Origin: a virus
Taxonomy: Duplodnaviria > Heunggongvirae > Uroviricota > Caudoviricetes
Length of the DNA: 53,159 bases
Direction: 5' to 3' (one strand)
IMG/VR virus record: IMGVR_UViG_2711768002_000013
The notes beneath the pieces are model-generated. The model saw only the letters and a program-made list of their open reading frames with translations. It had not been told where the DNA came from and ran no database searches. Position 1 is the first letter of the stretch; every line of letters begins with the position of its first letter. Below are positions 48,129-52,783 of the stretch, in pieces. Position numbers and translations under genes: made by a program.

Positions 48129-49499
48129 CTATGATATCCCTGAAATGTCCTCTTCAAGCTCTTTTACTGATTTCGCAATTTTAAATTTAAATTTTCTCTC
48201 TATTTCACTATTGCTAAGTTTTTTTTCATTCTCTTTCCCTATCCACATAGAAACAATTTCTCGTTTCTGAGATATATGTAGATTGTCAAAGTTAGGTATG
48301 TATTTAAAAGTCTCCGCTCTACCCCTGCGGAGTTCATAGAAAGTTTTAATCAAAGACTTTGGTTTTATTTCTGATGAAAGGCCGAATCGGCGGATAAGAT
48401 TATTGATCGTATGATTAACAGCTCGAAGTTGAGCTGTTGACGTTATTTGTGAGAAGTACGATACCCATCCCAATCGTTTACCTTCAAACACACATCCCGT
48501 AATTCTAAGATTTAGTTTCCACTGACAATATGCAACAGCTCGTTCTTTATCGCGCTTATTTTTAGCTTGTAGTAGAGCGTGTCTATATGCAGTAAAAATT
48601 TTTGCTAAGGATGACTCAAATCTAAGAATGCTCTCATGTTTTATCAATAATTCTCGATTTTTTATGTGGTAGCCCAAAAAGTTGAAACTTTCATCCAAGC
48701 TGCCTACTTTGGATTTTGAGTTCTCTTCATTTAATGGATGTGGGTTTAAATTTAATGATTGAAGCTTATCAATGATATGAGAAGCTATTTTTGTTGCTTG
48801 ATATTTTGGTGTTAAAATAAGAATGTCATCAACGTATCGCATGTACCATATGTCATGCATTTTATTGATTTCATCATCGAAATTAGATAGTGATATTTCA
48901 GCTAAAATGTTTGATATCGCTAATCCCTGAGGTACTCCTCTGGTATTATTAGGGATACCTTTGCTTCCTGTGGTTCCACTTACAGTAGGCACGATTAATG
49001 ATGATGTTATTAACTGTCTAATTTCTTTTTTTCTAATTTTATTTTTTATTGCATTAATTATCAATTTATGTTCAATTGAAGGATAGAAACTTTTAAGATC
49101 TATTTTTGCATATTCAGCATATAGACTGTTGTTTAATGCTTCTTTCAATGAGTCAATTACTGTATGTGGTAGTTTTAATCTGGACTTAGGATATATTTCC
49201 GTAAGGCATTCACAGAGAGCTCTAAGAGTAATTCTGTCCCTAGCAGTTGGTATGGAAATCTGTCTGGGTGTAGAGTTAGCGCCTTTAGATATTAATTTTT
49301 CTTTATATGCTGTAAATTTGTAATTGCCAGAATTAACCTTTTCAAAAATGAAAGTGATCTCATTTTTTATTGTCAAATCAAGTTTTGATGGGCGAATCCG
49401 ATCTATGCCAATCGCTCCTGATTCTTTGATTTTTTCAGAGTATACTTTTAGAAGATTTTTTTTCGAGAATGACTTTTTAAAAATTCTGCTTGCAGTCAT
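48129..49499 (-). CDS. Reverse transcriptase (YVDD catalytic box) with C-terminal extension
   Basis: Motifs in canonical order: ISIPTARDRITLRAL, KIDLKSFYPSI, RGVPQGLAISNILAEI, YMRYVDDILIL (YVDD codons 48825..48836), FNFLGYHI; ATG 49499 is 23 nt inside the 3' end of the upstream ORF. Confidence 0.85.
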   Translation of the reverse strand: MTASRIFKKSFSKKNLLKVYSEKIKESGAIGIDRIRPSKLDLTIKNEITFIFEKVNSGNYKFTAYKEKLISKGANSTPRQISIPTARDRITLRALCECLTEIYPKSRLKLPHTVIDSLKEALNNSLYAEYAKIDLKSFYPSIEHKLIINAIKNKIRKKEIRQLITSSLIVPTVSGTTGSKGIPNNTRGVPQGLAISNILAEISLSNFDDEINKMHDIWYMRYVDDILILTPKYQATKIASHIIDKLQSLNLNPHPLNEENSKSKVGSLDESFNFLGYHIKNRELLIKHESILRFESSLAKIFTAYRHALLQAKNKRDKERAVAYCQWKLNLRITGCVFEGKRLGWVSYFSQITSTAQLRAVNHTINNLIRRFGLSSEIKPKSLIKTFYELRRGRAETFKYIPNFDNLHISQKREIVSMWIGKENEKKLSNSEIERKFKFKIAKSVKELEEDISGIS

Positions 49500-50028
49500 A
49501 GTCAATCCAAAGATATATTAATGGGAGTATATAAAGTGCGGCAGTAATAAATATTCGAAGTAATATCCATAAAATAACAATTATTTTTTCTTTTTGTGTG
49601 GGGATCCTCGTCTTAAGTCCAACTTGAGTTACCCTTGAAATTTTATCATCTATGTCACGGTGATTCTCAACCTCATTGAGCAAATTAAAATATTTTTCTT
49701 TCTGTTCAAGAGATAACTGTTGACTGGTGGTAATGTCAAAATAGAGTCGCTGTAGTGCAATATAATTCCTTCTCATGGCTATTGCTCGACCACGAAAATC
49801 TAGGTTAGATACGATCAGAGAAATACCCAGTAGAGCCACTGAAAGTATCGCCGCAACGACATCTGTATTATCTCCTAGAACCTTTGGAAATCGCAACGTT
49901 ACAATTGAAAGTACCGCACTCAATATAGCATACCAAACGAGGATAAATTGAGAGTGTTTTTCAAGCCATTCTAGTCGATGGTGCGCTTGGATACGTGCTT
50001 TATATGTAAACCAAATATTGTCATGCAT
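49477..50028 (-). CDS. Small membrane protein (2-3 predicted TM helices), putative RT partner
   Basis: 183 aa; hydrophobic segments FILVWYAILSAVLSIVTL, VVAAILSVALLGISLIVS, IIVILWILLRIFITAALYILPLIYLWI; AAGGA Shine-Dalgarno before ATG 50028; overlaps the RT start. Confidence 0.7.
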   Translation of the reverse strand: MHDNIWFTYKARIQAHHRLEWLEKHSQFILVWYAILSAVLSIVTLRFPKVLGDNTDVVAAILSVALLGISLIVSNLDFRGRAIAMRRNYIALQRLYFDITTSQQLSLEQKEKYFNLLNEVENHRDIDDKISRVTQVGLKTRIPTQKEKIIVILWILLRIFITAALYILPLIYLWIDYDCKQNF

Positions 50029-50184
50029 AAAAGATCCTTTTTAAAAGCGGAAGGGGCAGGATATATTGGAACCGTTGAACATCCTGCCCGGCAGGATCAG
50101 TGAGCATAAGCTCAACAGTAAAATATTACTGTTCATTATCAGAGCCGCCCTTGCATGCGCAAGAGGAAAAACCTGCCCCATCCC
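50029..50184 (-). ncRNA. Structured ~150-nt leader, candidate RT-associated noncoding RNA
   Basis: Four or more stem-loops: CAGTAA-N4-TTACTG, CTTGC-N4-GCAAG, ATCCTGC-CCG-GCAGGAT, and long-range GGGGCAGG (50053..50060) with CCTGCCCC (50172..50179); no ORF. Confidence 0.35.
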
Positions 50185-50190
50185 TTTGAA

Positions 50191-50511: not shown

Positions 50512-50559
50512 CACTGTATTTGTATACAGTATTATTTTTAACTGTATGGATAAACAGTG
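50512..50559. promoter_or_regulatory. Two tandem LexA (SOS) boxes in the int-dinI intergenic region
   Basis: CACTGTATTTGTATACAGTA (50512..50531) and AACTGTATGGATAAACAGTG (50540..50559), both CTGT-N8-ACAG with AT-rich spacers. Confidence 0.7.
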
Positions 50560-51657
50560 TCAAGAGGTCTTATTTCTGCTCCTTTGGAGTTCTTCAAAAC
50601 GATTATGTAAAGATTTCGGATACAGTTCGGTATATACCTGCCATAGCACGTTTAATGAACGATGCCCTGTAACCTGAGCGACTTCCTCAATACTAAAACC
50701 AGCCTCAAATAAGCGACTTGCCCCTTCTCTACGCAAATCATGGTATCTCAGATCTTTAATACCTAATTTGCTTCTTACCCTCTGAAATCCTGCGGTAACA
50801 GAAGTGCTGTTATATGGAAAAATGAATTCTGATTTTTTGGGTTGTCGCTGGACGATATCCCAGGCTTCCCCAAGCAAGGCAACTTTCATATGGTTGCCTT
50901 CCTTTTTACGTGGATCTTTCCTGTCTCTTACTAGTATAGATTTTTGTTCCTGGTCGAGATCTTCCCATCGTAACCGGCATACTTCTCCGATTCGCATACA
51001 GGACCACACAGAAAATTTGAGGATATCAACGAACGGAATTTTTGAGCATTTATGAGTAGATCGTTGTTGAAGGCCTTCAATGAGCATGTTCAGTTCATCA
51101 GATGCTGGTCTACGATTACGACGGTTTGATTTACCAATCAAACCGAGTTTAAGTAGATATGGACGAGCGCTTTTCGCCGGGTTTGATGTGTAATTGATTC
51201 CGTATACAGGTTTTGCCGCATCCAGAACACTGCCAAGATAACTAACATCGTGGCTGACTGTTGCTGGGCCTGCACCAGCGTTGTTTCTTAGCCTGCAATG
51301 TTCAATTACGTCATTTTCTGTCAGTTCAGATAGTTTGATCGCGGAGATGTCACTATCCATAAGCAGTTCCAGCACATATCTTTTAGTACGGCCTGCTTTA
51401 CCTCCGGCATTTGGGTCATTTAAATATTTGTGTAGTAAGTCACGGACTGTAAGTCCGTCAACAGCATTTGATGATGGAATGCCATATAGATCTAATTCCA
51501 TCACTTTCTGTGCGCCCCATGTTTTGGCATGAGCATGTTTAGGGAATGTTTTGCTTTCCCTGTAAGTGATAACACCTTTTTCTTTGATAATCACATTACA
51601 GCGATAGCGTGGTGTGCCATCGGATTTTAGTCGTTTCTCTATGTTATAGTACGCCAT
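50560..51657 (-). CDS. Tyrosine integrase adjacent to the dusA 5' end
   Basis: 365 aa with tyrosine-recombinase region (..RYHDLRREGASRLFEAGFSIEEVAQVTGHRSLNVLWQVY..); start 88 bp from and divergent to dusA. Confidence 0.85.
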   Translation of the reverse strand: MAYYNIEKRLKSDGTPRYRCNVIIKEKGVITYRESKTFPKHAHAKTWGAQKVMELDLYGIPSSNAVDGLTVRDLLHKYLNDPNAGGKAGRTKRYVLELLMDSDISAIKLSELTENDVIEHCRLRNNAGAGPATVSHDVSYLGSVLDAAKPVYGINYTSNPAKSARPYLLKLGLIGKSNRRNRRPASDELNMLIEGLQQRSTHKCSKIPFVDILKFSVWSCMRIGEVCRLRWEDLDQEQKSILVRDRKDPRKKEGNHMKVALLGEAWDIVQRQPKKSEFIFPYNSTSVTAGFQRVRSKLGIKDLRYHDLRREGASRLFEAGFSIEEVAQVTGHRSLNVLWQVYTELYPKSLHNRFEELQRSRNKTS

Positions 51658-51745
51658 TACACGACCTCGTTATTTCGGGTTCCCATAAAGCGTGGGAACC
51701 TGTGCGGGAACCTAACGCGAGAAAAATAGCCTGAAATGTTCAAAA

Positions 51746-52783
51746 ATGCACGATAATCCTGAAACACAGAAAACTAATCAAACCAGCGTGATGCCTGAAA
51801 AAACTGGCGCTTACTGGAGTTCTCGGTTTAGCATTGCTCCTATGCTCGACTGGACGGACAGACATTGCCGCTATTTCTTGCGTCTGCTTTCCCGCAATAC
51901 GTTGCTGTATACCGAAATGGTGACCACAGGGGCGATTATTCACGGTAAAGGTGATTACCTGGCGTACAGTGAAGAAGAACATCCGGTAGCGTTGCAACTC
52001 GGCGGTAGCGATCCGGCGGCGCTGGCACAGTGTGCGAAGCTGGCAGAAGCGCGTGGATATGATGAGATCAACCTGAATGTCGGCTGCCCGTCTGACCGGG
52101 TGCAGAACGGCATGTTTGGTGCGTGTCTGATGGGTAATGCGCAGCTGGTTGCCGACTGCGTGAAAGCGATGCGCGATGTGGTGTCGATTCCAGTGACGGT
52201 GAAAACGCGTATTGGCATCGATGACCAGGACAGCTATGAATTTCTCTGCGATTTCATCAACACCGTTTCCGGCAAAGGCGAGTGTGAGATGTTTATCATC
52301 CACGCACGTAAAGCCTGGCTTTCGGGGTTAAGCCCGAAAGAAAACCGTGAAATCCCGCCACTCGATTATCCGCGTGTGTATCAACTGAAGCGTGACTTTC
52401 CGCATCTGACAATGTCGATTAACGGTGGTATCAAGTCGCTGGAAGAGGCCAAAGCACACCTGCAACATATGGATGGCGTGATGGTCGGGCGCGAGGCGTA
52501 TCAGAATCCGGGTATTCTGGCGGCGGTAGACCGGGAGATCTTTGGTTCCTCGGATACCGATGCCGATCCGGTGGCGGTAGTGCGCGCCATGTATCCGTAC
52601 ATTGAGCGTGAACTCAGCCAGGGGACGTATCTCGGCCATATTACCCGGCATATGTTGGGCTTGTTCCAGGGTATTCCTGGCGCGCGGCAGTGGCGGCGTT
52701 ATTTAAGTGAAAATGCCCATAAAGCGGGTGCAGACATTAATGTGCTGGAACACGCGCTCAAACTGGTGGCGGATAAGCGTTAA
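51746..52783 (+). CDS. dusA: tRNA-dihydrouridine synthase A
   Basis: 345-aa ORF with Dus-family motifs (..[16 protein letters not shown].., ..[10 protein letters not shown].., ..VTVKTRIG..); pspG follows as in the E. coli chromosome. Confidence 0.9.

Follow-up and report, generated by a model that had tools for sequence, protein, structure and literature searches.

To which element does an integrase belong when it stands at the end of a prophage that already carries another one, and where does it cut the host gene beside it? A 53,159-nucleotide (nt) stretch of DNA from a virus of the Caudoviricetes (IMG/VR record IMGVR_UViG_2711768002_000013; "the window" denotes this whole stretch) raises this question, as it joins a Rac-like prophage body to the host gene dusA. 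A preliminary description, made from the letters alone, had reported two tyrosine integrases, one resembling intR at the left end and a different one of 365 amino acids (aa) near dusA; both are present. It had also drawn attention to an exact 10-base-pair (bp) direct repeat around a ~3.6-kb block containing a reverse transcriptase (RT) gene, dinI and the second integrase gene, and had offered two readings, namely that this block is a separate small integrative element or that the entire prophage uses the dusA site. Here, we compare the locus with an empty site, with phage genomes and with intact prophages, and locate the crossover inside dusA, to the right of the repeat. The 365-aa protein is very probably the dusA-specific integrase of an mEp460-like lambdoid Escherichia coli prophage, an estimate that applies to this explanation of the locus as a whole. 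Of such a phage, the window contains no more than ~5-6 kb, from its right-hand end.

The attachment site at dusA

Four attachment (att) sites were aligned: attB from the empty locus of E. coli K-12 (comparison locus L003), attP from phage mEp460 (core at position ~6586 of L006), attL from strain O177:H21 (core at ~3140 of L001), and attR from the window. All four share an identical 8-bp core, ATGCTCGA, with partly matching flanks. The attB stretch reads ...TTTAGCGTTGCACCAATGCTCGACTGGACGGAC... and the attP stretch ...TTTAGCATTGCTCCTATGCTCGATAGGATGTAC...; the P' arm of the dusA phage includes TAGGATGTACCGTTTTTG... The left half of attB and the right half of attP make up attL, and the left half of attP and the right half of attB make up the attR of the window. 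Read in the opposite direction, the three- and four-way alignments return attP from the left arm of attR and the right arm of attL, and attB from the left arm of attL and the right arm of attR. The features that define this end of the window are the following.

51842..51849, plus strand: attR crossover core ATGCTCGA with semi-conserved flanks, within dusA (four-way att comparison)
51658..51841, plus strand: phage-derived P arm, consisting of the 88-bp spacer between int and dusA and a replacement dusA 5' end of ~32 codons up to the core (same layout as in the mEp460 attP)
51746..52783, plus strand: dusA, an intact 345-aa open reading frame (ORF) with a chimeric phage/host 5' end (ORF list and annotation of identical loci)
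50560..51657, minus strand: tyrosine integrase of the mEp460 type, 365 aa, very probably dusA-specific (Pfam Phage_integrase, 8e-21)

A megablast search of window positions 50200-51860 against 50,697 phage records is consistent with a core at 51842-51849: homology to ten phage genomes, which begins at 50251 in nine of them and at 50354 in the tenth, stops at 51847-51851. The corresponding attP is held by mEp460 and nine other sequenced phage genomes. Because the core sits inside dusA, the 88-bp spacer and the first 104 nt of the gene are phage DNA. The window is E. coli DNA with dusA and then pspG at its end, and the two parts of dusA differ in their distance from K-12, with 82.7% identity over nt 1-104 (~34 codons) and 98.9% over nt 105-1038 (934 nt). 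The earlier suggestion that the first ~30 codons of dusA derive from the element is thereby upheld. In O177:H21, attL lies beside a 105-bp remnant of the dusA 5' end next to yjbM, which RefSeq annotates as a 'tRNA-dihydrouridine synthase, missing C-terminus' pseudogene.

These comparisons show that attP recombines with the chromosomal site at ATGCTCGA, ~100 nt into dusA. The phage supplies its own first ~104 nt of dusA together with the 88-bp upstream spacer, and dusA is therefore reconstituted on integration with a 5' end and upstream region that come from the phage. The host's own 5' end is shifted to the far end of the prophage, where the 105-bp pseudogene of O177:H21 is found. Such a replacement of the dusA 5' end has been shown for dusA-specific elements by Farrugia et al. 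2015 (PMC4482086), who described dusA-specific integrases, genomic islands and prophages, listed E. coli 'phage lysogens' of 28-47 kb in their Table S1, and reported semi-conserved, imperfect direct repeats of ~21 bp at attL and attR inside dusA. Their elements match the window in the tyrosine integrase that lies divergently beside the dusA 5' end, match the window family in imperfect att repeats within the dusA coding sequence, and match the compared prophages in supplying a replacement 5' end and upstream region while the native 5' end lies at the other junction. We see no substantive difference, except that the window shows only the attR half and that its body is replaced by Rac-like DNA.

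The spacer between int and dusA contains the heptamer GGGAACC three times within 35 bp (51678-51712), once inverted and twice direct, and a similar GGGAGCC...GGGAACC pair occurs on the P' arm of mEp460 and of O177:H21. These motifs may be arm-type integrase sites; their window-wide count of seven, with 4.6 expected, is not significant, and we did not adopt the assignment.

The integrase and the modules at the right end

The 365-aa integrase matches Pfam PF00589, and its motifs R(IGE), HDLR, GHRS and VYTEL all read as intact. Its DNA is 97% identical to that of the mEp460 integrase. Together with attP, int forms the backbone of mEp460-like phages, and of 5426 complete E. coli genomes 729 contain it. 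The gap from its ATG to that of dusA (51746) is 88 bp, as the preliminary description had given it, and the proposed membership of a described dusA-targeting family is supported; 34 of 52 species-representative loci bearing a relative of the integrase have dusA as a divergent neighbor. The relatives with adjacent dusA span Kosakonia, Vibrio, Shewanella and a metagenome-assembled genome of the Hyphomicrobiales. The distance to dusA is mostly ~88-100 bp (many Enterobacterales genera, Shewanella, Idiomarina) and is longer in Aeromonas and Algicola (~135-155 bp) and in Vibrio (~205-225 bp). The second integrase is thus already known, as an ordinary dusA-site phage integrase. About one third of its relatives, mostly from Xenorhabdus and Serratia at ~60% identity, have no dusA nearby; other sites may serve there.

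What this integrase mobilizes is apparent from intact relatives. The O177:H21 dusA prophage measures ~46 kb from attR to attL and is equipped with all the usual lambdoid genes, with one integrase only, of the dusA type, and with a PrtN-type excisionase near attL. The isolated phage mEp460 is arranged in the order tail fiber, dinI, int, attP, two small genes, excisionase and exonuclease. The mobile element in the intact relative is the whole ~46-kb prophage. The dinI-int-attP module of the window shares 97% DNA identity with that of mEp460 (NC_019716), PhiR40_1, Lys8385Vzw, phiSTEC1575-Stx2k and SKA5. The mEp460-like phages share the attP arms, including the 10-mer at 51730, in the order tail fiber, terminator, dinI, int, attP, xis(PrtN). 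In contrast to the window, which carries a 2.2-kb cassette of the type termed DRT10 in this position, mEp460 has no cargo between terminator and dinI, and its early and late genes are not Rac-like.

Between the tail-fiber operon and int, the window contains the following features.

48031..48064, plus strand: conserved hairpin GCCGCAG...CTGCGGC after the tail-fiber operon, a lambdoid linker or terminator (present in relatives)
48096..50250, no strand: DRT10 cargo cassette in a variable slot that extends from the tail-fiber-operon terminator to dinI (breaks in homology)
50251..50499, minus strand: dinI-like gene, part of the conserved lambdoid backbone (Pfam DinI, 1e-19)
50514-50529 and 50542-50557, no strand: two palindromes resembling LexA boxes, CTGT-N8-ACAG, upstream of dinI (no further match anywhere in the window)

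Homology to cassette-free prophages breaks off at 48095 and resumes at 50251, the stop codon of dinI. The slot is empty in MS6198, KE54 and mEp460; elsewhere it holds three nleG genes (an O157:H7 strain) or nleG7 (another strain). At full length, 48031-50250 is found in 188 genomes, in only 57 of which it lies beside the dusA integrase. In prophages located at prfC and yecD, the RT/SLATT cassette leads into dinI and next a host gene, with no adjacent integrase, and the homology of these prophages to the window stops at 50564-50566, the int stop codon. Conversely, int occurs without the RT in mEp460, which has dinI-int-attP, and in most of the 729 genomes. Since int is found without the RT and RT-dinI without int, the cargo cassette, dinI and int-attP constitute three independently assorting modules. 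In all dusA prophages examined dinI adjoins int, and it is also present at the right end of the prophages at prfC and yecD. The two palindromes lie in the gap that separates the int stop from the start of dinI, which fits, and suggests, SOS control of dinI.

The recurrence of the same cassette limits in three prophage lineages led us to consider that DRT10 has a mobility of its own, a candidate that we rejected as the flanks are conserved linkers. With a terminator hairpin on one side and dinI on the other, both conserved, homologous recombination is sufficient. The hairpin at 48031..48064 is a common lambdoid linker and not an att site; it recurs in mEp460, in dusA prophages that lack the cassette, and in the NCTC10444 Rac-type prophage.

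The 10-bp repeat, which the preliminary description had taken as a candidate boundary of the block, is real. Reading the sequence confirmed both copies, although the distance from the right one to the dusA ATG is 6 bp and not 7 bp.

51730..51739, plus strand: right copy of the 10-mer, lying in the P arm of the phage, with the true core 103 bp to its right (also in the mEp460 attP)
48139..48148, plus strand: left copy of the 10-mer CCTGAAATGT, matching by chance within the last RT codons (codes for D-I-S-G in the RT tail ...EEDISGIS)

The sequence CCTGAAATGT has a third copy at 35679, within the tape-measure gene, and GATAATCCTGAAACA lies at 51752..51766. The mEp460 attP shares the right-hand copy even though this phage has no RT gene. 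As many as 2231 distinct 10-mers are present at least twice in the window, and the two zones around the repeat were picked after the fact; random zone pairs of equal sizes have a 10-mer in common in ~5% of cases, compared with a naive expectation of 0.04, and the repeat is therefore real but not above chance. A shuffle test of CCTGAAATGT (0.1 copies expected, three observed) addresses one pre-specified word and not a delimiting role. The preliminary description had itself held that its proposal would fail should comparison with an empty site place the junction elsewhere. The four-way comparison, which includes such a site, puts it 103 bp to the right of the repeat. The 10-mer is a coincidence and not an att site.

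The DRT10 cassette

The cargo comprises two overlapping genes (shared positions 49477-49499) and a predicted non-coding RNA (ncRNA).

48129..49499, minus strand: DRT10/UG17 reverse transcriptase, 456 aa, with YVDD and the C-terminal Ser456 (PADLOC RT_UG17, 1.1e-158; Pfam RVT_1)
49477..50028, minus strand: SLATT_5 two-transmembrane effector (PADLOC RTasSLATT, 1.5e-56; Pfam SLATT_5 PF18160, 1.3e-28)
50044..50187, minus strand: predicted DRT10 ncRNA with approximate ends (fold, promoter-like site, and published placement upstream of SLATT)

The RT covers the RT_UG17 profile fully (positions 1-429 of 429); its YVDD begins at residue 222, and Ser456 is the last residue of a C-terminus that reads ...EEDISGIS. 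UG17 has been named DRT10, a tripartite defense system of ncRNA, SLATT and RT in which the RT makes protein-primed tandem-repeat complementary DNA (cDNA) from an A-B-A' template (PMC12632851; bioRxiv 10.64898/2026.04.29.721553). The RT of Eco3DRT10 has 456 aa and primes from S456 (PMC12632851). The window agrees with the described DRT10/UG17-A systems (Tang et al. 2025, PMC12632851; Sanchez-Nieto et al. 2026, bioRxiv 10.64898/2026.04.29.721553) in the order predicted ncRNA, SLATT_5, RT and in SLATT and RT genes that overlap, and with Eco3DRT10, by its description, in a 456-aa RT with YVDD and a C-terminal serine. Judged by these profile matches and this layout, the RT, SLATT and ncRNA of the window appear to be the known DRT10 anti-phage cassette, carried as cargo. 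A tyrosine recombinase beside two of three E. coli DRT10 systems is dispensable for defense (Tang et al. 2025, PMC12632851), which fits the view that the integrase is the phage's own gene.

The predicted ncRNA lies where published DRT10 systems have a structured RNA of ~130-140 nt, upstream of SLATT. On the minus strand, 50040-50190 folds with a minimum free energy of -59 kcal/mol (z = -4.85; all 200 shuffles being less stable) into a basal stem and four small hairpins, and a promoter-like TTGACT-18-AATAAT is found at 50219..50190. A candidate A-B-A' template, CAACGGUUCCAA, is present at 50077..50066 with a period of 9, just 3' of a GC-rich fifth hairpin, corresponding to the placement of A-B-A' 3' of the fifth stem-loop in DRT10. 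Its 9-nt template candidate CAACGGUUC (50077..50069) differs in two bases from CAAUGAUUC of Eco3DRT10, and a different 9-nt repeat is thus predicted. By analogy with Eco3DRT10, the cassette would produce protein-primed tandem-repeat cDNA with the predicted unit GAACCGTTG and would trigger the SLATT membrane effector upon phage infection.

A scan of 47900-51900 against Rfam, which has no DRT10 ncRNA family, returned none, and yielded only two chance microRNA matches and a partial IS009 match. The latter (47900-47973, plus strand, 72.6 bits) falls in the 3' part of the tail-fiber-assembly gene tfa and stays below the gathering score because it is clipped by the search boundary.

The Rac-like body and its join to the dusA end

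Left of the tail-fiber region the window is of a different origin, and two features describe it.

1..1236, minus strand: intR, the Rac-like prophage integrase, 411 aa (Pfam Arm-DNA-bind_2 and Phage_integrase; DNA 100% identical to annotated intR of Rac-type prophages)
44357..46751, plus strand: mosaic joint zone in lom/stf (pairwise blast against relatives, sequence view)

Window positions 1-44356 are 99.3-100% identical to a full-length Rac-type prophage of NCTC10444 that has its own intR and xisR, and over this range we find the genes that mark the Rac type, intR, xisR and recET at the left end together with late genes, at 99-100% identity to full-length Rac types. Every intR locus examined, that of NCTC10444 included, adjoins ttcA. 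The window begins at the intR stop codon, and the Rac attL lies outside it; past tfa, neither a Rac attR nor a shared core was found in the window, only the common lambdoid terminator linker. From 46752 to 53159, the window is 99.7% identical to the O177:H21 dusA prophage. It thus differs from the Rac prophage (intR/xisR/recET, ttcA site) in that its body ends in a dusA-phage right end rather than a Rac attR and in that lom and stf are disrupted.

The join falls somewhere within the tail-fiber region, in shared late-gene sequence. The joint zone consists of an stf allele that many prophages share, among them one at another locus of strain GF47 with 99.5% identity. Both lom and stf are frameshifted, lom by the loss of 62 bp (44357) and stf by the loss of 49 bp (~45561); these deletions are flanked by ~8-bp microhomology and are absent from all relatives compared, and the best stf matches exceed the window stf by 111 bp. 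The frameshifted products have no exact-protein match, and the lom deletion junction was not found in IMG/VR or in GTDB representative genomes. The tail-fiber region of the window copy is therefore defective.

The Rac-type body is full-length, unlike the 23-kb K-12 remnant, with trkG (20701-22176) and full sets of head and tail genes. In A14 (locus L034, positions 427-2649) and L013, the Rac-type prophage adjoins ttcA on the side of its start codon, and ~50 bp separate the intR stop from the beginning of ttcA. The target of Rac thus appears to be, much as for the dusA phages, the 5' end of a gene for tRNA modification.

Several points weigh against assigning the right end of the window to an mEp460-like prophage. 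The left attachment site lies outside the window. Neither the cognate PrtN-type excisionase nor a dusA-type attL occurs in the 51.8 kb further left, with no dusA-type attL or P' arm across the window at up to three mismatches. The ends of the ncRNA and its template are predictions only. Lastly, none of 5426 complete E. coli genomes joins the same Rac-like body to the dusA right end, and the arrangement may not be real. The conclusions on the att site, the integrase and the cassette are unaffected by the origin of the join, for which we considered the following accounts.

It is quite possible, if short of an even chance, that the window is an assembly chimera in which two prophages, at ttcA and at dusA, were mis-joined across a near-identical tail-fiber region, the two integrases not truly being on one 53-kb stretch. 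Window 25001-50000 is contiguous in none of the complete genomes, and the switch occurs in an stf allele common to many prophages at 99.5%. Strain A14 has both loci, matching window 1-2500 at 100% and 47900-52000 near-perfectly (one base short), in a genome whose Rac is decayed. As they lie 1.85 Mb apart in direct orientation, a simple reciprocal crossover between them would delete a third of the chromosome. Against a chimera speak the 62-bp and 49-bp deletions, which with only ~8 bp of microhomology resemble genuine decay and not repeat collapse. Real inter-prophage recombinants and cointegrates are also common in E. coli. Moreover, exactly the right-hand structure of the window would arise, with no deletion, from one crossover of an excised Rac-like circle with a dusA prophage already resident in the host.

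Such a crossover is the route by which the mosaic could be real, an account we put forward tentatively and regard as on the unlikely side. A single homologous exchange, plausibly RecET-mediated, between the Rac-like genome, excised as a circle, and an mEp460-like prophage resident at dusA would result in a tandem cointegrate with the Rac-like genome nested in the dusA prophage, leaving the dusA integrase, attR and DRT10 as a fixed right end.

That the whole ~52-kb region constitutes a single functional phage, with the 365-aa integrase serving its integration and excision at dusA and with intR as a passenger, is improbable. Intact relatives do use dusA as whole prophages, to which extent the second of the two original readings stands, and mosaic lambdoid phages that sit beside dusA and have a Rac-like J/stf are known (L017, L024). 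For the window itself that reading does not hold: the body is Rac-like, 99-100% identical over 1-44356 to ttcA-sited prophages with intR and xisR at the extreme left end, neither a PrtN-type excisionase nor a dusA-type attL was found in the window, and lom and stf are frameshifted. A cos-to-cos recombinant, furthermore, would bring with it the dusA phage's early genes in place of intR. An autonomous ~3.6-kb RT/SLATT/dinI/int island bounded by the 10-bp repeat and inserted next to a complete Rac-like prophage, the first of those readings, can point to the exact repeat and to an integrase at one end of the block, and is nonetheless exceedingly improbable: the crossover lies at 51842-51849, the left 10-mer is RT coding sequence and the right one belongs to the P arm of a phage without RT, chance alone gives ~5% of such zone pairs a common 10-mer, the block splits at 50250/50251 and ~50566 into modules that assort independently, and no Rac attR or dusA-type attL was found between the block and the tail genes.

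We thus return to the mEp460-like dusA prophage as the source of the right end. Every component of the window is already known (the mEp460-like dusA integrase, dinI, the DRT10 cassette and the Rac-type prophage), and current understanding is left unchanged by these results. For annotation, they flag a DRT10 defense system, with a telomerase-like RT and a predicted variant template, as well as a prophage that is possibly mis-assembled or a cointegrate; if the latter is true, the cointegrate would be a documented route that uncouples a defense cassette and an att-site module from their original phage. Their value is mainly corrective, in that the att site of mEp460-like dusA prophages lies ~100 nt inside dusA and that short exact repeats near gene ends are no proof of element boundaries unless an empty site or an attP is compared. 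The locus also illustrates cleanly how modules assort at the right ends of lambdoid prophages, from the terminator through a cargo slot that holds DRT10, nleG or nothing, to dinI and int-attP.

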